Shown here in pieces: positions 1 through 11,471 of a DNA stretch of 64,000 nucleotides. The notes beneath the pieces were generated by a model. The model worked only from the letters and a program-made list of their open reading frames with translations. It was not told where the DNA came from and did no database searches. Origin of the DNA: an uncultured Chloroflexia bacterium (GTDB taxonomy: Bacteria; Chloroflexota; Limnocylindria; Limnocylindrales; CSP1-4); contig CAWFXA010000001.1 of NCBI GenBank assembly GCA_963819655.1, positions 544,001-608,000 on the forward strand. The letters run 5' to 3'. How positions within the stretch are numbered: the first letter of the stretch is position 1; each line of letters starts with the position of its first letter. The position numbers and the translations under genes are program-made.

Positions 1-33
1 GGCCCGGTCCGTGGATGCCGCAGACTTAGAGCC

Positions 34-609
34 ATGCCCGAGCAGGTCGTCACCGCCACACTCGACGGGGACGGCGCGCCGTTCCGTGTCGCGGCGACCG
101 ACCTCGGGATCGCCGCGGCAGCCTGGGAGTCGGACGAGGCCGCCTTTGCCGGCGCGTTACGATCGCGCCTCGGCGTCCCGGTCGTCCCGCTGGCCGAGGC
201 CCGCCCTGACGATCCGGCCGCCACGGTCCTGCGCGCCGCGATCCCGACCATCGAACGCCTGCTACGCGGCCTCCCGACGGACGGCGCTGACGTCGCGGTC
301 GACCTTGGCGATCGGCCGTCCTTCGACCGGCGTGTGCTCGACGCGGTCCGCGATGTCGGCTGGGGCCGGACGGCGAGCTACGGCGATATCGCCAAGCGGG
401 TCGGAGCGCCACGGGCGGCGCGAGCGGTCGGCGGCGCCCTCGGGCGCAACCCGATCTCGCTGGTCATCCCGTGCCACCGGATCATCGCTGGCGACGGGAC
501 GCTCGGCGGATATGGCGGGACGGGCTGGGTGGATCGCGACAAGCAGCTGTCGCGCAAGGAGGCCCTGCTGCTGCGCGAAGGCGTCACAGTCCCCAGGCGC
601 CGCGGCTAG
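34..609 (+). CDS. ogt: Methylated-DNA--protein-cysteine methyltransferase
   Basis: SYGDIA...RAVGGALGRNPISLVIPCHRII, containing the PCHR active-site motif. Confidence 0.92.
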   Translation: MPEQVVTATLDGDGAPFRVAATDLGIAAAAWESDEAAFAGALRSRLGVPVVPLAEARPDDPAATVLRAAIPTIERLLRGLPTDGADVAVDLGDRPSFDRRVLDAVRDVGWGRTASYGDIAKRVGAPRAARAVGGALGRNPISLVIPCHRIIAGDGTLGGYGGTGWVDRDKQLSRKEALLLREGVTVPRRRG

Positions 610-699
610 ACTCCGGCCCACCGGCGCCTCGTCACGGGCCGGGCCGGGGTCCACAACCGCGAGGGATCGGGTGCCGCTGTGGCGCCCCTGGAGGTCGCA

Positions 700-2526
700 T
701 TGACGGCAGCGTCCGTACCCGCCCCATCGATGTTCGCCGTCTTCCGCAAGCGCGACTTCTCGCTGCTCTGGCTCGCCCAGCTGATCTCCACCGCGGGCTC
801 GGCGCTCACCGACCTCGCCGCGGCGATCTTCGTGTTCCGTGTGACCGGCTCGGCTCTGGCGGTCGGCCTGACGTTGATGGTCACAGCCATCCCGAGCCTC
901 ATCGTGGGCCTGCTCGCCGGTGTCTTCGTCGACCGCCACGATCGCAAGCGCATCCTCGTCTGGACGTGCCTGATCCAGGCCGTCATCGTCGGGTCCATCG
1001 CGCTCGTGCTGAACGTGGACTCGATCGCGATCGTCGGGCTGTATGCACTGCTCCTGCTCAACGCCGGCGTCAGACAGTTCTTCGACCCGGCGCACGACAG
1101 CCTGATCCCGGAGATCGCGAGCGACGAGGAGCTCGCAGCCGCCAACTCGTTCCTGTCGATCGCCTCCTTCGGCTCGACGGCGATCGGGTTTGCCGGCGCC
1201 GGCCTGCTGGCCAGTGTCGACCTGCGGATCGCCTTCGTCATCGATGCGCTGTCCTTCGTCATCTGCGCGTTGCTGATATCGCGGATGGGCCGCTACAAGA
1301 TGCCGGTACCGGAAGACGAGGCGAGCGTCAGTGTCATCGTCGCGAACCTCAAGTCCGGCCTGAGCACCCTGTTCGGCACGGAAGTGCTGCGCTCGCTGTT
1401 CTTCGTCGGCGCCCTGATGTTCTTCTCGTTCGGGCTCTGGAACGTCCTCCTGCTGCCGATGTCACTGCGCGAGCTCAACGCGACGGAGTTCGAGTACGGA
1501 CTGCAGGAGGGCCTGACATCGGTCGGGTTCGTGCTCGGCTCGTTCTTCATGGCGCGCTTCTCGAGCCGCCTGCCCGAGTCGATCTGGGTGGTCGTTGGCC
1601 TCACCGGCATGGGCGTCTGCGGGCTTGCCTACGCCTCCGCGACGTCGATCCCGGTCGCGATCGTCCTCGTGATGATCTCGGGATTCTTCAACTCGCCGGC
1701 GTCGGTCGCCCGGTCCGTCCTGCTCCAGCGGAACACGCCGCGCGACATGCGCGGCAGGGTGTTCTCGGCGTACTACGTCATGCGCGATGTGATCTTCCTG
1801 TTCGGGATGGCCGGGGCCGGTCTCGCCGACATCATCAACGTCCGGGTGATGATCGCGTTCGCCTCGGTCCTGCTGTTCGGGTCGGCGCTCTATGCGTTGT
1901 TCGCGCCAGGCCTGGGCATCCGATCGCTCCGCGCCGCGCGGGCGCGACTCGAGGAGGCGGCCGAGCCGGCGCCCACCGCGATCCCCACGCGACTCGCGAC
2001 GATGGCCGACTTCGATCGGCTGCTGACCAACCTCACGACGTTCGCCCGGCTCGACCAGGCGCAGCGCGAGGCGTTCATCCGCGGCGCGACGGTGCGCACG
2101 GTCCCGGCCGCCACGCGGATCGTCGAGCACGGCCACAGCGCGTCGTCCGTGTACTTCGTCCTGGAGGGCTCGGCCACCGCCGGCATCCCGGTCGACGGCG
2201 ACTATCGCGGACTCTCGACGATGCACGCCGGCGACTTCTTCGGCGAGATCGCCGCGCTGACCGGAAGCCCCCGGACCGCCGACGTCGTGGCCGACACCGA
2301 GACGACCCTCCTCGAGGTGCCGGCGGACGCGCTGCGCGCGGTGATGACCGTGCCCGAGATCCGGCGGTTGGTGTTCTCGACCCTCACATCGCGGTTGACG
2401 CGCACCGAGGCCGCCGACCTGCCGCGCCTCGCCGGCCCCGATCAGGAAGCGCTGCGCGACCTGCGCACACCGCGCCCGATCGTGGAGGCCGTCCCCCGCT
2501 CGTCCACCGGCGAGTCGGGCGCGTGA
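700..2526 (+). CDS. MFS transporter (DHA3/MefA-like) with C-terminal cyclic-nucleotide-binding domain
   Basis: About 12 hydrophobic segments; motif A-like GVFVDRHDRKR; C-terminal GDFFGEIAALTGSPRTADV phosphate-binding cassette. TTG start at 700 chosen because GGAGG lies at 690-694. Confidence 0.88.
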   Translation: MTAASVPAPSMFAVFRKRDFSLLWLAQLISTAGSALTDLAAAIFVFRVTGSALAVGLTLMVTAIPSLIVGLLAGVFVDRHDRKRILVWTCLIQAVIVGSIALVLNVDSIAIVGLYALLLLNAGVRQFFDPAHDSLIPEIASDEELAAANSFLSIASFGSTAIGFAGAGLLASVDLRIAFVIDALSFVICALLISRMGRYKMPVPEDEASVSVIVANLKSGLSTLFGTEVLRSLFFVGALMFFSFGLWNVLLLPMSLRELNATEFEYGLQEGLTSVGFVLGSFFMARFSSRLPESIWVVVGLTGMGVCGLAYASATSIPVAIVLVMISGFFNSPASVARSVLLQRNTPRDMRGRVFSAYYVMRDVIFLFGMAGAGLADIINVRVMIAFASVLLFGSALYALFAPGLGIRSLRAARARLEEAAEPAPTAIPTRLATMADFDRLLTNLTTFARLDQAQREAFIRGATVRTVPAATRIVEHGHSASSVYFVLEGSATAGIPVDGDYRGLSTMHAGDFFGEIAALTGSPRTADVVADTETTLLEVPADALRAVMTVPEIRRLVFSTLTSRLTRTEAADLPRLAGPDQEALRDLRTPRPIVEAVPRSSTGESGA

Positions 2527-2638
2527 CGATGTCTCGCAGGCGACACCTCCCTGGTCGGCTGCGGCCTAGGAGTACAGCCACACGGGGCGTATGGTTGGCG
2601 GTAGCGCATCAACCGTCAGATCAGAAGGGATCGGTTCG

Positions 2639-2833
2639 ATGAAGAAGTACAAGCTCCCGAAGGACGCGTCGGTCGAACCGGAGAAGGAAGACCCGAACGA
2701 GGGGTTCATCGACGAAGGGGACGTCGTGGGCCACGGGCTGCCGATCACGGCGCCACCGAGCCTCGGACAGCAGGGACCCGGTCATGGCGGCGAGCTGACG
2801 CCGACCGACAAGGATGAGGACACGACCGACTGA
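2639..2833 (+). CDS. Small acidic peptide, 64 aa (MKKYKLPKD...EGDVVGHGLP...DKDEDTTD), possible precursor peptide
   Basis: AGAAGGGA RBS before ATG 2639; TATGGT -10-like hexamer at 2590-2595; hairpin directly downstream. Confidence 0.7.
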   Translation: MKKYKLPKDASVEPEKEDPNEGFIDEGDVVGHGLPITAPPSLGQQGPGHGGELTPTDKDEDTTD

Positions 2834-2856
2834 TCCGACGCGCCCCGTCACAACAC

Positions 2857-2883
2857 CAACCGCCCGGCACCGCCGGGCGGTTG
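2857..2883. terminator. Hairpin between convergent genes, likely bidirectional terminator
   Basis: caaccgcccggc-acc-gccgggcggttg, a perfect 12-bp stem. Confidence 0.7.
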
Positions 2884-2887
2884 CGAT

Positions 2888-3706
2888 TCAGGCGGGGACC
2901 GTGGCCGTCGCTGCCAGGAGCGCCTTGATCTCGAAGGGCGACGCTGACGGATAGCGCGACCGCAACCGGGCGGCCTGCCCTGCCAGGTGCGGCGCGGCGA
3001 ACGAGTTGCCCGTCGCGCGGATGCGGCCGCCGCCGCGCCACGCGACATCGACGTCGACTCCGTACGCTCCGAACTCCACCGGGGGTGATGGGTTGTAGAA
3101 CCACGTCCCCGGGTCGGCGACGTCGTGGGCCGCCACGGACACGACCGACGCGAACAGCGACGGATACGACGGGCCCGGCACGTTGTTCGCGGCGCACACG
3201 AGCAGCGAGTTCGCGAAGTACGAGCGGTCGGCAAGCGCGTGGAACGCACTGAACATGGCCTCGCTGCGCGATGAGAGGCTGAGATTCACGACGGCGACGC
3301 CCGCACCGATCGTCCACTCGACAGCTGCCGCGAGGGCTCGCCCCTTGCCGCGGTTGTCCGCACCGAGCATGCGGATCGACACGAGGCTCGCTCCTGGGGC
3401 GATGCCCGCCACGATGCCCGCGCATGCGGTCCCGTGCCCGACGATGTCGAGGGCCTCCGGATCGTCGACAACGACGGCGTCGTCTCCGTCGACGTCGACG
3501 CGCAGGTGACGGACGACCCGCCCCCGCACGGCGGGATGATCGCCGTCGACGCCCGAATCGATGATGGCGACGGTCACGCCCTGCCCATCCGCGTCGCCGA
3601 ACACGTCCTGGCGATCCAGGCGGCCGAAAGGTGGGTCACGTCGCGCGAGCCCGTCGCGTGCTCCGGCCGCAAATGCCTCGCTCCACGCGGGCAGTGAGAT
3701 CGTCAC
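2888..3706 (-). CDS. S8 (subtilisin-like) serine peptidase, no signal peptide
   Basis: Triad motifs VAIIDSG, GHGTACAG and GNSFAAPH; GTG start overlaps the upstream TGA (GTGA). Confidence 0.88.
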   Translation of the reverse strand: MTISLPAWSEAFAAGARDGLARRDPPFGRLDRQDVFGDADGQGVTVAIIDSGVDGDHPAVRGRVVRHLRVDVDGDDAVVVDDPEALDIVGHGTACAGIVAGIAPGASLVSIRMLGADNRGKGRALAAAVEWTIGAGVAVVNLSLSSRSEAMFSAFHALADRSYFANSLLVCAANNVPGPSYPSLFASVVSVAAHDVADPGTWFYNPSPPVEFGAYGVDVDVAWRGGGRIRATGNSFAAPHLAGQAARLRSRYPSASPFEIKALLAATATVPA

Positions 3707-5235
3707 GACCGTCCCGATCGGCGTCCGCGCCCGCCGTCGGCGCGATCGCCGTGGCGGATGAGCGCATCCAGCCAGTCGATCGCGAGGCGCTTCGCGTCCG
3801 CATCGACATCGCCGAGGCGGGCGATGCGGTCTGCGATCGCCCACATCGGATCGTCGTCGGCGGGGAGCCCGATCGTGACTCGGGCGACGAGGGCATCGAT
3901 CGCAGCAGGGTCCGTCGGCTCGCCGTTCGACTCGGGCGGCTCACTGAGCAGGTCCGATAGCGCCCGGGCCAGGATGGAACCGGCGTCGTGGCGCAAACGC
4001 CCGTCGCGAACCGCGAGCGTCGCCATGCCCGCCATCGCCGTCGCGATGTCGAGGTCCCGCAGCGAGAATGTGCCGCCATCCTTGTCGAGCGCCTCGAGCA
4101 CGCCGACCGTCCCCGTCTCATCGCTCAGTGGCACGGCCAGCAGCGTCGATGGGACATGACCGGTCGCCTCCGCGACCGAGCGTTCGAACCGCGGATCCGC
4201 CGCGACATCGGCGACCGCCAGGGGCTGCCCGGTCGTGAAGACGTAGCCGGCGATACCCATCTCCGGCTCGATGGCCATCCCCACGATGCCGCCGGCGGCC
4301 GGGCCCGACGCGGCGCGGAACACCAGTCGGTCGGTCGCCGCGTCGTAGAGCGCGATCGAGGCCGCCTGGGCCTCGAGTGCTGTCACCGCAGCCATGGCGA
4401 CCGCCGTCAGCAGCTCGTCATCGTGTCGTGGGGCGAGGCGGTCGGCTGCCGCGACCCGGCGGCCCACCGCCGCGAGGACAGCCTCCACGGAGTCGCCCTC
4501 CCGGCTCATCGTCGTGTGGCGAGCGGCGAGCCGGCCCGCGTCCGGGATGACCAGCTGGTCCCCGTCGAAGCGGACGAGGCCTTCCGCCACCAGATCCGCC
4601 AGCAATCTGTTCACCGATTGACGAGACCCGCCGATCATCCCGGCGAGCTCCGCTTGCGTGTACGGCCACGACAGACGATGCTCGCCGGTCAGGGTGTCGG
4701 CTTCGGCCGGATCGCGGCCGTCCCCGATCGCCAGGGTCCGCAGGAGGTGGCGAGCGAGGCGCCCGGGAAGGTCGAGGAAGTGGAGATCCTCGACCTGCGC
4801 TGTGAGTCGCCGGATCTCGCCGGCCAGCGTGACCAGGAGAGCTCGGCGCAGGGCAGGCTCGCTGTCGACCAGGGCGTCGAACGCGTCCCGCCGCAGCACA
4901 TGCGTCTCGGTCGGGTCCAGCGCGACCGCTGTCGCCGACCGTGGCGCGCCATCGAGCAGCGACAGCTCGCCGAAGAAGCCGCCCGTGCTGATCGTGGTCA
5001 GGATGGCCGGCTCGGACCCCTCATCCGACGGGATCGTGATCTTGACCGAGCCGTCCGCGACGATGAACAGGGCGTCACCCGGGTCGCCCGCGTGGAAGAT
5101 CGTCTCGCCTCGACGGAAGCGCCGCGGGCGAAGGGCGGCCGCTATGAGGTCCAGCGACGTCTCGTCGACACCCGCGAATAGCCGGCAGCCGCGCAGGGTC
5201 TCGCGCATGGGAACTGGACCCGAGGGCGCGACCAT
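3703..5235 (-). CDS. Crp/Fnr transcription factor fused in frame to a GAF-domain protein (GAF part begins at ATG 4509)
   Basis: FGELSLLDGAPRSA cNMP cassette; HTH TQAELAGMIGGSRQSVNRLL; GAF motifs GIAGYV, DPRF, LLAVPL, GVLEALDK. Confidence 0.85.
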   Translation of the reverse strand: MVAPSGPVPMRETLRGCRLFAGVDETSLDLIAAALRPRRFRRGETIFHAGDPGDALFIVADGSVKITIPSDEGSEPAILTTISTGGFFGELSLLDGAPRSATAVALDPTETHVLRRDAFDALVDSEPALRRALLVTLAGEIRRLTAQVEDLHFLDLPGRLARHLLRTLAIGDGRDPAEADTLTGEHRLSWPYTQAELAGMIGGSRQSVNRLLADLVAEGLVRFDGDQLVIPDAGRLAARHTTMSREGDSVEAVLAAVGRRVAAADRLAPRHDDELLTAVAMAAVTALEAQAASIALYDAATDRLVFRAASGPAAGGIVGMAIEPEMGIAGYVFTTGQPLAVADVAADPRFERSVAEATGHVPSTLLAVPLSDETGTVGVLEALDKDGGTFSLRDLDIATAMAGMATLAVRDGRLRHDAGSILARALSDLLSEPPESNGEPTDPAAIDALVARVTIGLPADDDPMWAIADRIARLGDVDADAKRLAIDWLDALIRHGDRADGGRGRRSGRS

Positions 5236-5373
5236 GCACCCATCGTACGCGGCGCGTATCGTCACCAACCGGTCCGATAGTGGTGCGTTCGCGCACCAGA
5301 TAGGTGGTACGTCGGCTGGATGACACAGGCTCTGGGCAGTACGAAGGTACTATCACGGGACAAGACGACCGAT

Positions 5374-5413
5374 TCGCATCAGATCTCGACCGGTCGCATC
5401 AGATCTCGACCGG
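5374..5413. repeat. Perfect 20-bp tandem repeat, 2 copies (tcgcatcagatctcgaccgg), in a divergent promoter region
   Basis: Read directly at 5374-5393 and 5394-5413. Confidence 0.9.
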
Positions 5414-5429
5414 GGCTCGGAGGGGAACC

Positions 5430-6845
5430 ATGTTCTTGACAGCGCGACGGCGTTCGCGACCCATCGGTACCGCGTCGGCGGCACTCCTATCGGCGCTGGC
5501 ACTCGTTGCTGCGCTCGGTGTCCCGGCGACCGCGACAACGACGGCCACCAAGCCGTATTCCGCGACGTGGGTCGTGAGCGGCAGCCCGGTCGCGAATCCA
5601 CCCAACACCATCGCGCTCGCGGGTGGCGCCACGTCGGCCGTCCTAAGGATCACCAATCATGCGAGCCCACAGTCCCTCGGCTCGGCCAACATCACACCCC
5701 CGACTGGGTACACCCTGATCGGTGGGTCGCTCAGCCCCGCCGGCGGGAGCGCCACGAAGGCTGGCAACACGCTCCAGCTGCGCAACCTGGCTCTGGCTCC
5801 ATCCGCGTCCGTCAATGTCACGATCAATGTCCGGACCCCGTGCGCCGGCGGGGCCGCGGCAACGTGGACCCTCGTGGTCAAGCAGGCGAACAACTTCAGC
5901 GGTCCTCCCGGCAACGATTTCGCCCGGGCGCCGGGCACGGTTGCCCCGTCGACCACGGTGTCGGCGTCCGCCTGCCTCCTGCGCTTCGCAAACCAGCCGA
6001 AGACGACCGAGACCGGGGCACCGATCCGGGCCGGTTATGACAGCTCGGGCGACCCGGTCACGGTCGAGATCTACGATCCCGGCACCGGCCTGGTCGTCGA
6101 CTCGGACGCCGCCGTCACGCTGACGCTGGACCGCAACCCCGCGGGTGGCACATTGACGGGTGGCGTCGTCAACGCGGTCGACGGGGTCGCCACGTTCCCC
6201 GCCTTGTCGGTGAACACGCCTGGCCCATACACCCTGAAGGCCAGCAGTCCGGCCGCCTCGAACACGCCCATCTCGGACCTGTTCATGGTCTCCGACACCG
6301 TCACCGAATGCGAGGGCACCGGCTGCAGCTTCATGCAGGAGGGTGGCCCCCACACGTACACGACGACGCCGCAGAATGGCACGACGGGCGCGGATTACGC
6401 CACGTCACTGAACCTGCCTGGGCTGCGGATCTCGTGCGACTTCGGGCCGTTCGACTATCCGGATTCGCGGCAGCCCAACGCGGTCTGGTACATCTACGAC
6501 GATGGGAACGCCAGGTCCGAGAAGACCAACGTGATCGTCATCGACAAGGACTGGGTCCAGATCACGCCTGAGAACGGCACGTCCAAGTACCGGGTCTGCT
6601 ACACGTCTCCCGAGCGATTCACCGACCGCACAGGCAACCCGGCTCAGCCGGACCCAGGAGCATGGAACACGAGCGCGCCAGAAACGATCGGTCCGAGCGA
6701 GTACTTCGGAACGACCTGGTACACGGGCCTCCTCCCCGACTGCGGCAAGAAGCCGGTGGCGCCGTGCGTCCTGAGTTGGACCGGTACTGGCGGCGACCGC
6801 ATCGGGACGTTCCTGACCCCGGCGGGCGATCCGGGCTTCCGGTAA
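5430..6845 (+). CDS. Secreted beta-rich (Ig-like) protein with 8 Cys
   Basis: GGAGGGGA RBS; Arg-rich N-terminus followed by a hydrophobic signal peptide; Thr/Gly/Pro/Asn-rich beta-strand pattern (GVATFPALSVNTPGPYTLKAS). Confidence 0.75.
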   Translation: MFLTARRRSRPIGTASAALLSALALVAALGVPATATTTATKPYSATWVVSGSPVANPPNTIALAGGATSAVLRITNHASPQSLGSANITPPTGYTLIGGSLSPAGGSATKAGNTLQLRNLALAPSASVNVTINVRTPCAGGAAATWTLVVKQANNFSGPPGNDFARAPGTVAPSTTVSASACLLRFANQPKTTETGAPIRAGYDSSGDPVTVEIYDPGTGLVVDSDAAVTLTLDRNPAGGTLTGGVVNAVDGVATFPALSVNTPGPYTLKASSPAASNTPISDLFMVSDTVTECEGTGCSFMQEGGPHTYTTTPQNGTTGADYATSLNLPGLRISCDFGPFDYPDSRQPNAVWYIYDDGNARSEKTNVIVIDKDWVQITPENGTSKYRVCYTSPERFTDRTGNPAQPDPGAWNTSAPETIGPSEYFGTTWYTGLLPDCGKKPVAPCVLSWTGTGGDRIGTFLTPAGDPGFR

Positions 6846-6852
6846 CCGCATC

Positions 6853-6881
6853 GGGCCCCGGGCGATCCGTCCCCGGGGCCC
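6853..6881 (+). terminator. GC-rich hairpin after the secreted-protein gene
   Basis: gggccccggg-N9-cccggggccc; no U-tract. Confidence 0.5.
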
Positions 6882-6922
6882 ACCCAGACGCTCGGCCCTC
6901 GCCTCGGTCCTAGACTGGGCGA

Positions 6923-9900
6923 ATGACAACCGAGATCCGACGCTTCGCGACGGTCGTCAACTCGGACCTCAAGGGTTCGACGGCCCTCGGGGAGATGCTG
7001 GATCCCGAGTCGCTCCGCGAGCTGCTGACCCGCTACTTCGACGAGATGCGGTTCGTGTACGAGTCGCACGGCGGCACCATCGAGAAGATCATCGGCGACG
7101 CCGTCGTGGCCGTCTTCGGCATGACCACGCCGCGCCCTGACGACGCCGTGCGCGCGGTGGAGGCGGCAGCCGAGAGCGTGGCGGTGCTCAACCGACTCAA
7201 CGACGAGTTCGAGCGGACGTGGGGCGTGCGGCTGATCGCGCGCACCGGGGTGAGCAGCGGGGACGTCGTCGTCGGCGAGGCGACCGCCGGTCAGCACGTG
7301 CTGACCGGCGACGCGATGACGATCGCCACCGCCATGGAGCAGAACGCGCCGCCGCTCGAGGTGCTGATCGCCGAGCCGACCTACGCCCTGGTGCGGGACG
7401 TCGTCGACGTCGAGCCCGCGCCCCCGGTCACCCCCAAAGGCATGGACATGTCGATCGGGGCATATCGGCTCATCTCTGTGCGTCGCGAAGGCGGCGAGCG
7501 TGACGCGTCGACCCCGGAAGCTGCGGCCGTCGGACGACGCGGATCACGCGAAAGCCGGAAGACGGTCACGCTCGTATTCGCCGACCCGCGCCCGATGTCG
7601 ATCACCGGTGAACCGATATCGCCTGAGGCGCTGCGGGAGGTGATGACCAGCTATTTCGACGCGATGCGCGCCGCGCTCGCTCGGCACGGGGCTACGATCG
7701 AAAAGTTCATCGGCGACGCCGTGATGGCCGTCTACGGGCTGCCGATCCGGCACGAGGACGACGCGATCCGCGCCGTGCGCGCCGCCGCCGAGATGCAGGC
7801 CGCGCTGCCCAACCTCAACGAGACGTTCCGCGATCGTTGGGGCGTCGAGTTGCACAATCACATCGGGGTCAACACCGGGGAAGTGATCGCCGGGGACGCC
7901 TCCACCGGCCAGCGGCTCGTGACCGGCGATGCCGTCAACACAGCAGCGCGGCTGGAACAGGCGGCCGGTCCGGGCGAGATCGTTCTCGGCGAACTGACGT
8001 ACCGCCTCGCCCGTGACGAGATCCAGGTCGAGGCCATCGCGCCGCTCACGCTCAAGGGCAAGGCCGAACCGGTCAGGGCCTACCGGCTCGTCGGTATCGG
8101 CGCCGGACCGACGGCTCGCGAAAGCACGTCTGCGCCGTTCGTGGGACGCGAGGCCGAGATGAGCCGGCTCACGTCGGCCCTCCTCGGGGTCACGACACAG
8201 GGGCGGCCCGAGCTGTTGACCGTCGTTGGCGATGCCGGCGTGGGCAAGTCGCGCCTCATCAGGGAGTTCGCTGCGACCGCGGGCCGCCACGCGCGGATCG
8301 TGCGCGGCCGATGCCTCCCGTACGGCGACGGCATCACGTTCTGGCCGCTGGCGGAGATCGTCCGCGACGCCGCGGGAGTGGTGGCCGACGACGCGCTCGA
8401 AGAAGCGTTCAGGAAAGTCCGCGACCTCGTGGACAGCGAGGGGATCGACCCCGCCGAACGGGCGGCGGTCGCCGAACGCGTCGCGGCGGCGATCGGTCTC
8501 GCGCAGACACAGTTCCCGGTGGCCGAGCTGTTCTGGGGCGCCCGCAAGCTCCTGGAGTCGCTGGCACGCGAACGGCCCCTGGTCATGATCGTCGATGACA
8601 TCCATGCCGCTGAGCCGACCCTGCTCGACCTGCTAGACCACATCGTGGAGCTGGCCGAGGACGCACCGATCCTCCTGCTGTGTTCCGCCCGCCACGAGCT
8701 CGTTGAGCGCCACGCCGCATGGTCCGAGGCACACGCCGATCAGCTGATCGTGCTCGCGCCGCTGTCGGACGACGACACAGGTCGCATGATCGACGAGATC
8801 CTCGGGCGCGCCGGCCTGGAGTCGGCCGTCATCGAACGAATCGTCGCGGCCGCCGAGGGCAACCCCCTGTTCGTCGAGCAGATGGTGTCGATGCTCGTCG
8901 ACAACGGCACGCTCCGGCGCGACGGTGCACGATGGACCGTCACGGGATCGGCCAACGATGTCGTCGTCCCACCGACCATCCACGCCCTCCTCGCTGCGCG
9001 CCTCGACGACCTCGGCGAGGACGAGCGCGCGGTCGTCGAACCGGCGTCGGTGGTGGGGCTCGTGTTCGCCGAGGCCGCCGTGGAGCACCTGATCGAGGCG
9101 GCCCGCCGCGCGACGGTGTCGCGCGATCTCGGCAGCCTGGCCCGCAAGCAGTTCGTGCGACCCGACCTGCTCGACGAGGAAGAGGCATATCGCTTCGGTC
9201 ATCAGCTCATCCGCGACACCGCCTATGGCAGCCTGCTGAAGCGCGAGCGTGTCGACCTCCATGAGCGGTTCGTCGAATGGGCGGACCGGATGAACCGGCA
9301 ACGCGGCCGCGAGACGGAGTTCGAGGAGATCCTCGGCTATCACCTGGAGCAGGCGTACCGCTACCGGACGGACCTCGGCCCGCTCGACGAGCATGGCGTC
9401 GCCCTCGGCACACGCGCCTCGCAGCGTCTCGCATCCGCCGGGCGGCGAGCCCTCGCCCGTGGCGACTTCCCCGCCGCGGCGAATCTCATAGAGCGGGCCG
9501 CCCGTGTCCTCGCCGAGGAAGACCCCGATCGGGCCAGGCTCCTCGTGTCGGCAGGCGAGGCGTTCATGGAGATCGGCGAGTTCGGCACGGCCGACGCGGT
9601 CCTCGTCCAGGCGACGGCCGAGGCCGACGCCCTCGGGGCGCGCCCCGTGTCGATCACGGCCGACCTGGTCCGCCTGCAACTGCACCTCCGGTCCGAATCG
9701 ACGACCTCGATCGACGACGTGATGCAGCAGACGCTCGACGGGATCCGCGACCTCGAGGGCTCCGACGATGCGAATGCCCTGGCACGGGCATGGCGCCTGC
9801 TGACGCTGGCGTACGGCGTCTCGGGCCGCTACGGCGAGGCCGGTGATGCGAACGAGAAGGCGATCGACTACGCGCGACGTGCGGGCGATCGAGTCATCGA

Positions 9901-10684
9901 GGCGCGACTCCACGCGTCGTCCGCGATGGTCGCGTTCTACGGGCCGACCCCGGTCTCCGACGCCATCGCCGTGTGCGAGGGCCTGCTCCGGCTCAGCGAG
10001 GGCGACCGGCGGGCGCAGGCCACGACCCTCGCGGCGCTCGCCCATCTCCGGGCGATGGTCGGCGAGTTCGAGCGCGCGCGTGAAGACTATCGGGTCGGTC
10101 GCGCCACGCTCGAGGAGCTCGGGCTGCTCTTCGACGCACACACGATCTCGATCGATTCAGGGCCGGTCGAGCTGCTCGCGGGCGATCCGGCGGCGGCGGA
10201 GGTCGAGCTCCGCAAGGATTACCAGGCGCTCGATGCGATGGGTGAGCGCAATTACATCTCGACGATCGCGGGTCTCCTGGCAGAGGCCCTCTACCAGCAG
10301 GGCAGGTTCGAGGAAGCCGGGACGTACGCCTCGGTCTGCGAGGATGTCGCGGCCGCCTCCGACGTGTACTCGCAATACCTCTGGCGGGGCATCCGGGGAA
10401 AGCTGCTGGCCCGCGACGGATCCCACGACGAGGGGGTCGAGCTGGCGCGCTCCGGGGTGGTCGAGACGCGTGCGTCCGACGACATCGAAGGGCAGGCGAA
10501 TGCTCTCGTCTTCCTGGCCGAGGCGCAGGCGGCCGCGGGCCGGTTCGAGGACGCAGCCGGGTCCGCGGCGGAGGCGCGCACGCTGTTCGAGCTGAAGGGC
10601 AATGTCGTGTCCGCGGCGCGGATCGACGAGCTCCTGTCGGTCGCGGGCGTCAGCCCGTCGGGTCGAGCGGTCTCCCCGGCCTAG
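6923..10684 (+). CDS. Tandem class III adenylate/guanylate cyclase domains + AAA/STAND P-loop ATPase + TPR-like helical region
   Basis: Two cyclase repeats (SDLKGST..EKIIGDA; FADPRP..EKFIGDA..GDAVNTAARLE); Walker A GDAGVGKS; Walker B MIVDDIH; GNPLF motif; TAGACT 6 nt before ATG (leaderless). Confidence 0.9.
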   Translation: MTTEIRRFATVVNSDLKGSTALGEMLDPESLRELLTRYFDEMRFVYESHGGTIEKIIGDAVVAVFGMTTPRPDDAVRAVEAAAESVAVLNRLNDEFERTWGVRLIARTGVSSGDVVVGEATAGQHVLTGDAMTIATAMEQNAPPLEVLIAEPTYALVRDVVDVEPAPPVTPKGMDMSIGAYRLISVRREGGERDASTPEAAAVGRRGSRESRKTVTLVFADPRPMSITGEPISPEALREVMTSYFDAMRAALARHGATIEKFIGDAVMAVYGLPIRHEDDAIRAVRAAAEMQAALPNLNETFRDRWGVELHNHIGVNTGEVIAGDASTGQRLVTGDAVNTAARLEQAAGPGEIVLGELTYRLARDEIQVEAIAPLTLKGKAEPVRAYRLVGIGAGPTARESTSAPFVGREAEMSRLTSALLGVTTQGRPELLTVVGDAGVGKSRLIREFAATAGRHARIVRGRCLPYGDGITFWPLAEIVRDAAGVVADDALEEAFRKVRDLVDSEGIDPAERAAVAERVAAAIGLAQTQFPVAELFWGARKLLESLARERPLVMIVDDIHAAEPTLLDLLDHIVELAEDAPILLLCSARHELVERHAAWSEAHADQLIVLAPLSDDDTGRMIDEILGRAGLESAVIERIVAAAEGNPLFVEQMVSMLVDNGTLRRDGARWTVTGSANDVVVPPTIHALLAARLDDLGEDERAVVEPASVVGLVFAEAAVEHLIEAARRATVSRDLGSLARKQFVRPDLLDEEEAYRFGHQLIRDTAYGSLLKRERVDLHERFVEWADRMNRQRGRETEFEEILGYHLEQAYRYRTDLGPLDEHGVALGTRASQRLASAGRRALARGDFPAAANLIERAARVLAEEDPDRARLLVSAGEAFMEIGEFGTADAVLVQATAEADALGARPVSITADLVRLQLHLRSESTTSIDDVMQQTLDGIRDLEGSDDANALARAWRLLTLAYGVSGRYGEAGDANEKAIDYARRAGDRVIEARLHASSAMVAFYGPTPVSDAIAVCEGLLRLSEGDRRAQATTLAALAHLRAMVGEFERAREDYRVGRATLEELGLLFDAHTISIDSGPVELLAGDPAAAEVELRKDYQALDAMGERNYISTIAGLLAEALYQQGRFEEAGTYASVCEDVAAASDVYSQYLWRGIRGKLLARDGSHDEGVELARSGVVETRASDDIEGQANALVFLAEAQAAAGRFEDAAGSAAEARTLFELKGNVVSAARIDELLSVAGVSPSGRAVSPA

Positions 10685-11313
10685 GTGCGCGGGACCGGGC
10701 GCATCGGATAGACACCCACGACGATCGGCGCGAGCGGGTCGAACGAGAGCTCATAGCCGATCTCGCCACCGCGTAGCAGCTCGCCGAGGAGCGATCCCTC
10801 GCGGGACGGCAGGCCGACGTACACGCGCCCGCCCTCGAGCTCGACCTGGGTCACGTCGTCATCCGTGCCGTCGATCGCGAAACGGCGCCGGAGCTCGTGC
10901 ATCGGCACGTACGGGCGGCTCTTGATGAACCGCCGCAGCTGGGGCGCCGTGCAGCCGTTCGGTCGGTCGTTGCGTGGCTCGGTCTCGGCCGCGCCATTCC
11001 CGTTGACGTGGATCGCCGGTATGGGCGCGTGGCCGCCCGAGCCGTTCGTCGCGACGGGAGCCGTCGCGGGCGGTGGCGAGTCAGGCGGCGGGCCTGGCTG
11101 CGTGGCAGACACGTGCTGGACCGGGGCGACCGGGGCGACCGGTCGTTCGGCGGCGGCTTCAGGGCTGGTCGAGCGCGGCGCTGCCGTACCCGGATCGGAC
11201 GGCGCGGTCTCGATCGGTGCGGGTGCGACCGGCCGATTGGCGGTCGCGTCGGGACGTGGTCCGTCGTTGCGGTGCCGGCCGTGGTGCGGTCGGCCGTGGT
11301 GGCGTCTGCTCAT
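10681..11313 (-). CDS. Hypothetical protein: Pro-rich disordered N-terminus, compact C-terminal domain
   Basis: Plausible globular C-terminus (QLRRFIKSRPYVPMHELRRRF...); fills the gap between genes. Confidence 0.65.
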   Translation of the reverse strand: MSRRHHGRPHHGRHRNDGPRPDATANRPVAPAPIETAPSDPGTAAPRSTSPEAAAERPVAPVAPVQHVSATQPGPPPDSPPPATAPVATNGSGGHAPIPAIHVNGNGAAETEPRNDRPNGCTAPQLRRFIKSRPYVPMHELRRRFAIDGTDDDVTQVELEGGRVYVGLPSREGSLLGELLRGGEIGYELSFDPLAPIVVGVYPMRPVPRT

Positions 11314-11471
11314 CGGCTGCACCGATGGCGGCCGGTCCCCCGGCGATCATGCTCGGCGACGGGTCGTCGCCGTCGGAAGGTGGGCATCGAGTCTCGATCA
11401 GTGGGCGGCGGCCGCTCGGATACGACCGTCGGCCGATGATACCCCAGGGCGCCGCTCGACTCCCGCGGTGT

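Follow-up and report, generated by a model that had tools for sequence, protein, structure and literature searches.

The DNA analysed here (below, the window) is a stretch of 64 kb (64,000 nucleotides) from the 3.49-Mb, ~70% G+C genome of an uncultured bacterium whose protein relatives are labelled Candidatus Limnocylindrales, phylum Chloroflexota. Between positions 679 and 10684 it carries six genes, defined by Pfam matches and open reading frames (ORFs). They encode a major facilitator superfamily transporter with a cyclic-nucleotide-binding domain (MFS-CNB), an acidic protein of 64 residues (pep64), an S8 subtilase, a Crp-GAF fusion, a predicted secreted protein of 471 aa and a STAND/TPR protein with two cyclase domains. 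An earlier reading of the letters alone (the sequence-only reading) had listed the other genes, a list that Pfam confirms, and had missed the 471-aa gene between Crp-GAF and the cyclase. We show here that the S8 and GAF genes are the invariant core of a functionally linked module, with DVEGH-motif peptides, Crp, CNB-MFS transporters and cyclase-STAND proteins as frequent partners. The features of the module are:

679-2526, plus strand: MFS_1/MFS_3 transporter with a C-terminal cNMP_binding (CNB) domain (Pfam MFS_1 1.3e-29, MFS_3 5.1e-25, cNMP_binding 1.1e-16)
2530..2545, unstranded: CRP/FNR-type palindrome TGTCTCGCAGGCGACA (TGTC-N8-GACA) upstream of pep64, with invariant TGTC and GAC
2590..2595, plus strand: -10-like hexamer TATGGT (TAnnnT), conserved in the upstream alignment
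2639-2833, plus strand: pep64, acidic small protein of 64 aa, candidate precursor or substrate (ribosome-binding site, 11-sequence alignment)
2857..2883, unstranded: hairpin between the convergent stops of pep64 and S8, likely a bidirectional terminator (-31.4 kcal/mol)
2888-3706, minus strand: S8 subtilase, 272 aa (Pfam Peptidase_S8 6.1e-31)
3703..5268, minus strand: Crp-GAF fusion with CNB, HTH_Crp_2, GAF_2 and a helical tail of ~100 aa (Pfam); likely start ATG at 5235 or 5208
5430-6845, plus strand: protein of 471 aa with a signal-peptide-like N-terminus (MFLTARRRSRPIGTASAALLSALALVAALGVPATA; ORF translation)
6923-10684, plus strand: tandem class III cyclase domains (two Guanylate_cyc), AAA_16/nSTAND1 and TPR (Pfam)

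The S8 protein scores 108.2 bits against Peptidase_S8 (PF00082; gathering cut-off 21.8) and has subtilisin BPN' as its best match in the PDB (4.5e-22). The residues of its Asp-His-Ser triad and the oxyanion Asn (D51, H92, S236 and N142) are invariant in 30 aligned orthologs (alignment A3) and in 66 orthologs from two phyla. Homologs are typically called at 271-272 aa, and at least 6706 relatives lie at E <= 1e-30. The protein has no visible pro-domain or signal peptide, and its Pfam match begins about 40 residues into the 272 aa. The lack of an N-terminal hydrophobic stretch or pro-domain, the sole basis for calling the enzyme cytoplasmic, suggests such a location. Among the named NCBIfam families, those closest to it are subtilases of the leader or maturation type, all below cut-off (QhpE 101.9 against 165 bits, mycosin 114.1 against 278.75, PatA 23.2 against 421), so that S8 is an equivalog of none of these. 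The GTG start of S8 (3706-3704) overlaps the TGA stop of Crp-GAF (3705-3703) as GTGA, and the translational coupling of both genes that had been claimed before is real.

Crp-GAF belongs to the CRP/FNR group, with cNMP_binding (84.3 bits) and HTH_Crp_2 (51.8 bits) both above cut-off. In translation, both CNB domains of the locus, on the MFS and on Crp, carry G-E...R-[ST]-A, which we take to be the phosphate-binding cassette. A profile of the GAF domain (A4) has 4mcw as its best PDB match (9e-31), followed by the cyclic AMP (cAMP)-bound Lcd1 GAF 5w10 (4.9e-28) and CyaB2 1ykd (4.1e-26), and it matches the GAF domains of PDE5/2/10 at 1e-19 to 1e-23. Foldseek with the predicted GAF structure (pLDDT, the predicted local distance difference test, above 90 in the core) returns the same top set. 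By profile and predicted fold, the domain is of the type that binds cyclic nucleoside monophosphates (cNMPs), closest to GAFs solved with cAMP or cGMP, and binding is predicted; its proposed role as a potential cNMP receiver is in line with this.

Loci were fetched for 11 members of the genus, 26 of the class Limnocylindria, 39 Actinomycetes and 13 other Chloroflexota; 36 of the actinomycete loci came from a draw of 301 genomes, and L204-L206 had first come up with the peptide pattern. Present in one copy, the S8 ortholog occurs in 62/101 genomes of the genus, and five more hold only a paralog of ~35% identity. By family, it is found in 52/91 (f1), 78/103 (f4, a tally that includes the four unpublished genomes G273, G122, G156 and G319), 0/12 (f2), 0/92 (f3) and 0/2 (f5) genomes. 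Outside the class, 18 Chloroflexota genomes (among 301 of the phylum, including the unpublished G828) and 39/301 Actinomycetes genomes carry it, the latter at E <= 1e-45 and 43-57% identity. The neighbourhoods of these orthologs compare as follows:

GAF gene adjacent to the S8 ortholog: genus 11/11, class 26/26, Actinomycetes 39/39, other Chloroflexota 13/13
CNB or cyclase gene within 7 kb: genus 11/11, class 26/26, Actinomycetes 36/39
CNB gene (manual reading): other Chloroflexota 7/13
Crp-type regulator near S8: genus 8/11, class 22/26, Actinomycetes 24/39
MFS near S8: genus 11/11, class 22/26, Actinomycetes 15/39
Cyclase near S8: genus 8/11, class 3/26, Actinomycetes 14/39

Hence, a GAF gene stands beside S8 in all 89 of 89 loci across Limnocylindria, other Chloroflexota and Actinomycetes. 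All 11 genus loci share the arrangement MFS-CNB > pep < S8 < Crp-GAF. Both GAF-S8 gene orders occur, and the two genes also overlap in L200. Family f1 has Crp and GAF in one fused gene, whereas family f4 and Actinomycetes encode them separately; L028 and L029 lack Crp. Five class loci (L042, L043, L044, L046 and L047, from G010, G001, G388, G342 and G350) form a divergent same-genus subclade with the compact order MFS-CNB > Crp-GAF > S8. The module lies at a fixed chromosomal place between housekeeping genes and is vertically conserved with a single-copy core; its members are soil and sediment bacteria and include Streptomyces-sized actinomycete genomes and a Nocardioides metagenome-assembled genome (L090). 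In the 3.49-Mb source genome, tblastn finds only 6 places with CNB, 6 with cyclase, 3 with S8 and 3 with GAF domains, of which the 10-kb module holds 2, 1, 1 and 1. Because these places are so few genome-wide, their clustering is not due to chance. Conserved synteny of S8, GAF, MFS-CNB and cyclase with a DVxGH peptide had been set beforehand as the test of the sequence-only reading, and the outcome was positive in two phyla, wider than expected. The six-gene set that it envisaged is partly supported, in that the partners recur in both phyla; the invariant core shrinks to GAF-S8, and the cyclase is a variable neighbour. In L014, L015, L020 and other loci, orthologous genes appear as adjacent tblastn pieces in different frames, likely assembly frameshift errors rather than pseudogenes.

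The small protein pep64 is a real gene and the local form of a wider unnamed family with one or many [DE]-V-[EQ]-[GA]-H motifs. It carries DVVGH (DVEGH in relatives), is preceded by the ribosome-binding site GAAGGG and converges on S8, from which the hairpin between the stops separates it. It is conserved as a protein in 11/11 related genus loci, which bears out the earlier note of a converging peptide gene. The alignment of these 11 sequences (A1) has 12 invariant columns, including D-V-x-x-H and an internal G-G-E. Relatives at E < 1e-3 occur in 11/24 same-genus genomes, and a profile search recovered 673 metagenomic homologs, all unnamed; pep64 itself matched no Pfam, NCBIfam or PADLOC family. 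Over 301 genomes of the class, the pep64 profile matched 9/15 genomes of the genus, and elsewhere gave two weak matches only (7.9e-4 and 9.2e-4), both of which fall in small DDDVEGH-repeat ORFs beside S8 (L022 and L045). In the whole 3.49-Mb genome pep64 is the sole DVEGH-type small ORF, so that the background of the motif is near zero. A complex prediction of S8, the GAF part and pep64, with pep64 as partner, reached a score of 0.17 against a mark of 0.32 and is not used as evidence.

In the related loci the small proteins take three forms: with one motif as in pep64, with many tandem motifs, or as an aroma-sacti leader that ends in the motif. Small ORFs with at least two [DE][VTI][EQ][GA]H motifs lie beside (Crp-)GAF-S8 in 21/26 class loci (the five without are the divergent subclade), in 21/39 actinomycete loci, to which L197 adds a variant, and in 4/13 other Chloroflexota loci. 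In family f4 the repeat gene stands between Crp and GAF. Motif numbers run from 1 to 12 or more. Between species, conservation is confined to the acidic motif; the units in between are not conserved and are often basic (KMKLPKA, VSRPRAN). The repeat proteins tested matched no Pfam or NCBIfam family. A reverse scan with the DDDVEGH DNA pattern, over one genome per species, gave at least 120 loci, many of them off-frame chance matches. Among its 13 loci with at least two motifs and 2-kb flanks, 10 have an S8 ortholog and a GAF gene adjoining (L058, L100 and L112 do not). Repeat proteins of both phyla often end in S-[RK]-G-[ED] right before the stop (L024, L026, L027, L031, L147 and L158), in place of which pep64 has its internal G-G-E. 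A second type of DVEGH-repeat protein, absent from the window and without a Pfam family, has a conserved helical tail (...MNPxLARxLARxKERDIQR...EAK/EAR...); it lies upstream of Crp-GAF (L022, L023, L025, L026 and L027) or of Crp (L024) in other genera of the family, and occurs in L167 too.

The third form links the motif to a curated family of leaders of peptides that are made by the ribosome and modified after translation (RiPPs). Nine of the 39 actinomycete loci, from large genomes, hold an operon cyclase-STAND > S8 > GAF, immediately preceded by one to four small ORFs. Five of these ORFs were tested (from L199, L200, L202 and L203), and all pass the NF045560 model "aroma-sacti cluster domain" with 52-76 bits, above its cut-off of 30. 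The last residues that the model matches are exactly EVQAH, DVEAH or DVEGH, and a tail of 5-12 residues follows (...GGALF, ...GAGLW, ELKLV). Thus, the motif stands at the leader-core junction of a curated RiPP-leader family. In L200 a radical SAM/SPASM maturase lies 5 kb away. The leader cleavage site of the StsA-type sactipeptide is stated as unknown (PMC10288494).

The region before the peptide genes suggests how they may be controlled. Across 11 aligned upstream regions of the genus, the 140 nt before pep64 are poorly conserved (56% identical) save for the palindrome, the TAnnnT box and the ribosome-binding site. The palindrome has the genus consensus TGTCGGCTAGCCGACA (TGTC-N8-GACA), in which TGTC and GAC are invariant in 11/11 regions. 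Exact copies number 1 in the window (0.95 expected) and 24 in the genome. At most 450 nt upstream of the first motif, an exact copy is present in 10/11 genus loci (by script), 16/20 class and 15/21 actinomycete peptide loci, where chance would give about 0.003-0.007 sites per 450 nt; the palindrome of L011 was seen by eye, and L018 has a copy with one mismatch. CRP/FNR sites have the geometry TGT-N10-ACA, and the conserved position suggests that TGTC-N8-GACA is a candidate CRP/FNR-type operator of the peptide genes in both phyla. The proposal that a cNMP switches on Crp has so far gained this operator, as a match at the level of sequence. In the TATGGT box, T91, A92 and T96 are invariant or nearly so (alignment A5). 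The consensus sigma-70 promoter scan gave 0 sites, and the box is therefore only inferred to be -10-like; with TATGGT as the -10 box, the palindrome would be centred near -62. The hairpin behind pep64 has 12 bp (-31.4 kcal/mol, z = -5.43, and 0/200 shuffles fold as well) and likely acts as a bidirectional terminator; without a T-run, it escaped a simple terminator scan. In L196, L197, L198 and L206 the peptide gene is preceded by a pair of exact TGTC-N8-GACA sites, spaced 23 nt apart. Elsewhere in the source genome (G000), near-consensus palindromes TGTCGGCTGGCCGACA and TGTCGGCTAGTTGACA at C1:244432 and C2:478731 are possible further targets of the regulator.

The transporter is DHA3/EntS-like, with NCBIfam 2A0121 and EntS-like matches below cut-offs. 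Its MFS_3 match covers residues 17-407, hence a full-length transporter. The MFS counts given above for the genus (11/11) and for Limnocylindria (22/26) refer to an MFS-CNB ortholog beside S8 or to a paralog of the same architecture. These two MFS-CNB lineages are only ~26% identical and occupy the locus at different positions; at least 10/39 actinomycete loci have an MFS with CNB (manual reading).

The cyclase protein combines its two catalytic domains with STAND and TPR parts (AAA_16 86.7 bits, nSTAND1 29.4, TPR matches weak), and Pfam finds no LuxR helix-turn-helix (HTH) in it. At 46% identity, the two cyclase domains complement each other in what they have lost (manual reading): domain 1 keeps D-L-K-G-S-T, with T and M at the positions of N and R, and domain 2 keeps N and R and has D-P-R-P-M-S. 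This complementarity suggests one active site, which we take to be built as in pseudo-heterodimeric cyclases. Domain 2 matches Cya2 (2w01, 3.6e-28), a guanylate cyclase in which a Glu stands at the position of a Lys in domain 2. We regard the protein as a probable adenylate cyclase with a single active site of the pseudo-heterodimeric kind. The gene adjoins the module in 8/11 genus loci (it is absent from L014, L017 and L021), and a single cyclase domain is found in the relatives in L015 and in Actinomycetes. The source genome encodes further cyclase-STAND proteins (G000 C3:241119-244160 and C2:338305-340744), one with a CNB gene 3 kb off, and an extra tblastn match to the STAND/TPR part lies at ~22950 of the window (G000 C1:566951).

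We propose that the locus is a cyclic-nucleotide-controlled peptide-processing module, a reading that we put at about even odds (roughly 0.5). A signal sensed by the STAND/TPR part would turn on the cyclase; cAMP-bound Crp would then bind TGTC-N8-GACA and drive transcription of the peptide gene, and cAMP on the GAF partner would switch on S8, which would cut the precursor at the DVEGH motif. The CNB-gated MFS might export the product or products. Such cutting would yield a fragment of pep64 at the window locus; for relatives it predicts numerous copies of a short unit, often cationic, or else a 5-12-residue tail with an aromatic end. Cleavage, export and the cyclase product are inferred parts of this scheme.

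Several observations weigh against this proposal. S8-GAF does not require a detectable DVEGH neighbour: the five-locus subclade has no peptide gene, with DDVEGH-coding sequence in 0/5 of its genomes (completeness 75-95%), and no peptide candidate was found within 7 kb in 8/39 actinomycete and 9/13 other Chloroflexota loci. Moreover, L204-L206, found through the peptide pattern, bias the actinomycete peptide counts upward, and synteny within the class is partly shared descent. The cyclase adjoins the core in few loci of the class (3/26), against 8/11 in the genus and 14/39 in Actinomycetes. The EntS/Mef-like MFS family is known for efflux of small molecules, and the transporter could export cAMP or something else. 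Pep64 is acidic, unlike most bacteriocins or pheromones, and hhalign aligned it with aroma-sacti leaders over 11 motif columns at a probability of 8%; with an alignment of the motif only, homology of pep64 to these leaders is not claimed. Short contigs of a rhizosphere metatranscriptome (X20, ~90-99% alike) cover parts of MFS-CNB, the 3' end of pep64, S8 and Crp-GAF, but as contigs without strand or level, for which DNA carry-over is possible, they support no claim on expression or habitat. By Pfam, the genes between 1 and 15259 of the window include no modifying enzyme and no immunity gene. Without a modifying enzyme beside the precursor the locus is no RiPP biosynthetic cluster, and with proteolysis alone the product would be an unmodified processed peptide.

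A rival reading is that the DVEGH proteins are turned over rather than matured and exported. They could be disordered cytoplasmic proteins for stress, charge buffering or metal binding by Asp, Glu and His, made through cAMP-Crp and removed by cAMP-GAF-S8 in a regulated intracellular turnover, and the MFS could act as a homeostatic valve for, for example, cAMP. In favour of this, the peptides carry no signal sequence and are low-complexity proteins with a high charge and very different lengths; small-molecule export is the type assigned to the MFS family, modifying and immunity genes are missing at the window locus, and the persistence of S8-GAF without a DVEGH gene means that the enzyme may have other substrates. 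However, in actinomycetes the motif exactly ends a curated RiPP-type leader; the tails behind it are short with an aromatic end, and as many as four precursor genes stand in tandem. Repeat units change between species and only the motif stays, which is the pattern of recognition sites flanking variable cores, and MFS-CNB fusions of two lineages, 26% identical, have been recruited at different positions. Turnover is rather unlikely in our view. A quite improbable role of the small protein is that of a trans-acting S8 partner, be it an inhibitor, a pseudo-substrate or a chaperone in place of the missing pro-domain. Subtilases usually need a pro-domain and this S8 has none, and the two genes are adjacent and convergent, with a putative promoter and terminator of their own; yet 1 to 12 or more motifs with unconserved spacers fit poorly with a folded chaperone or a stoichiometric inhibitor, and many S8-GAF loci without a peptide nevertheless keep the catalytic residues of S8.

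The sequence-only reading had also considered an immune-like role, which the locus does not bear out. In a Pycsar- or STAND-type anti-phage system the STAND part would sense infection, the cyclase would make a cNMP, and CNB effectors (MFS, S8) would arrest or kill the cell. STAND NTPases are described as common in defence in the parts of PMC7159879 that we consulted. PADLOC models of PycC match the cyclase domains (best 3.9e-26), PycTIR and effector models match the CNB parts and the "subtilase" model matches S8 (6.6e-15), but these are matches to generic domains, with no match at the level of a system. Pycsar consists of PycC with a single CNB-bearing transmembrane or TIR effector, patchily distributed in defence islands. 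Here a full-length MFS and a transcription factor carry the CNB domains, a candidate CRP operator precedes the peptide gene, and the core is single-copy, widely and vertically conserved (f1 52/91, f4 78/103) and fixed between housekeeping genes, all of which makes defence very improbable. Disfavoured most strongly is a mere assembly of unrelated genes, together by descent or chance and with no common function beyond their family roles. Shared ancestry would account for synteny within a genus or class, but Actinomycetes and other Chloroflexota, at an S8 identity of 43-57%, have these partners again, with changed order, fusion or fission of Crp and GAF and other MFS lineages. The reverse motif search lands on S8-GAF, the operator is conserved before peptide genes, and these domains are sparse in the genome.

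A bolder extension, drawn by analogy, is that the module forms a peptide-to-cAMP autoinduction circuit in Actinomycetota and Chloroflexota. TPR receptors of Gram-positive pheromone systems bind peptides, and a DVEGH peptide cut by S8-GAF and exported by CNB-MFS might likewise be sensed by the TPR arm of the cyclase, with cAMP feeding back through the Crp operator, the GAF domain and the CNB gate. We regard this as unlikely. If true, peptide sensing would be tied to peptide production by a second messenger, in a quorum-sensing or developmental signalling system not recognised before, and the aroma-sacti/StsA RiPP family would gain the leader peptidase that it still lacks.

The cyclic-nucleotide-controlled processing that we favour shares elements with several known systems. 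Subtilases that cut leaders or spacers include QhpE, the cyanobactin proteases PatA/PatG and yeast Kex2, which acts on the tandem-repeat alpha-factor precursor. Similarly, S8 is predicted to cut a short conserved motif flanking variable or repeated units, whereas it scores below the cut-offs of QhpE, mycosin and PatA and is no member of these, and the precursor here has no signal peptide. We know of no leader-cutting subtilase that is paired with a GAF protein or controlled by a cNMP. The mycobacterial cAMP toolkit includes cyclase-ATPase-TPR(-LuxR) proteins (Rv0386/Rv1358/Rv2488c) and MFS+CNB proteins (Rv3239c/Rv3728), and thus the same combinations of class III cyclase with AAA_16/STAND and TPR and of CNB with MFS. 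In contrast to these, the cyclase protein of the window shows no LuxR HTH in Pfam and has two cyclase domains with complementary degeneracy. To our knowledge, the mycobacterial proteins have not been linked to an S8-GAF pair or a DVEGH peptide. With TIGR03896 (cyc_nuc_ocin) and TIGR03903 (TOMM kinase/cyclase fusion), Haft's cyclic-nucleotide-linked bacteriocin families give earlier examples of CNB proteins and of cyclase-NTPase-TPR fusions that stand beside genes of peptide export or maturation. The window proteins are not members (57.7 against 161.05 and 247.1 against 705.75 bits), and those systems use ABC/C39 exporters and TOMM enzymes, unlike the module here.

The aroma-sacti (NF045560) and StsA-related (NF045559; StsA of Streptomyces sparsogenes) families resemble the module in that the model ends at [DE]V[EQ][AG]H, the motif of pep64, and leader-type small ORFs stand beside orthologous cyclase-STAND > S8 > GAF genes in 9/9 large-genome loci (with five ORFs from four loci tested against the model). 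They differ in that pep64 and the DVEGH-repeat proteins fail the model (pep64 and three repeat proteins gave no match at E <= 0.01, and L170 none at E <= 1) and in that the window has no radical SAM enzyme. In the passages and section 6 that we consulted, PMC10288494 names no S8, GAF or cyclase.

As far as the consulted parts of PMC7159879 tell, the closest published theme that we found is that of the actinobacterial "peptide-processing systems" (Kaur, Burroughs, Iyer, Aravind 2020). There a small, fast-diverging precursor is combined with a dedicated peptidase, a STAND (AP-ATPase)-TPR protein and sometimes a CRP-like regulator that senses cNMPs, in Actinobacteria and other multicellular-type bacteria (PMC7159879). 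In the same sections, however, the peptidase is a zincin-like metallopeptidase, the peptides are of the FxSxx-COOH, RxD or acidic C-terminal kinds, and radical SAM and vWA-MoxR genes are frequent, and GAF and subtilisin appear in other contexts only. The module described here instead has S8, a GAF partner and the DVEGH motif. A prior description of the S8-GAF pair with DVEGH peptides was not found in the literature searched, with subscription journals and supplements outside the search.

The analysis defines a conserved and hitherto unnamed module in soil and sediment bacteria of two phyla. It offers a testable function for thousands of entries called "S8 family serine peptidase" or "GAF domain protein" and for small repeat proteins unnamed in databases, and it proposes a concrete cleavage motif and a peptidase for the RiPP leader family whose cleavage site is stated as unknown. 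It would also be a rare case in which one cyclic nucleotide may control a single pathway at three levels, namely transcription, processing and export. Purified proteins and a synthetic peptide would allow each of the proposed steps to be tested.

The flanks of the module are ordinary, with an Ogt-type gene upstream and orf213, an M24 peptidase and a thiamine pyrophosphate (TPP) enzyme downstream. Further features in and around it are:

1-606, plus strand: Ogt-type neighbour with a 6-O-methylguanine DNA methyltransferase DNA-binding domain (Pfam, 5.7e-29)
5310..5325, unstranded: one-mismatch copy of the palindrome in the divergent intergenic region of Crp-GAF and 5430-6845, uncertain (pattern scan)
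10681-11322, minus strand: orf213, conserved, without a family, between the module and the M24 peptidase

Copies of the palindrome with one mismatch show no enrichment, as the window has 17 of them where 25 are expected, and the site at 5310-5325 therefore carries no weight alone. Neither the 471-aa protein nor orf213 matched a family in Pfam, NCBIfam or PADLOC. Among the 11 fetched genus loci, relatives of the 471-aa protein are found in L011, L012, L013 and, weakly, L016. The orf213 protein has a Pro/Ala-rich N-terminal half, and its C-terminal ~90 aa are 64-90% identical across family f1, where the gene always lies between the module and the M24 peptidase.

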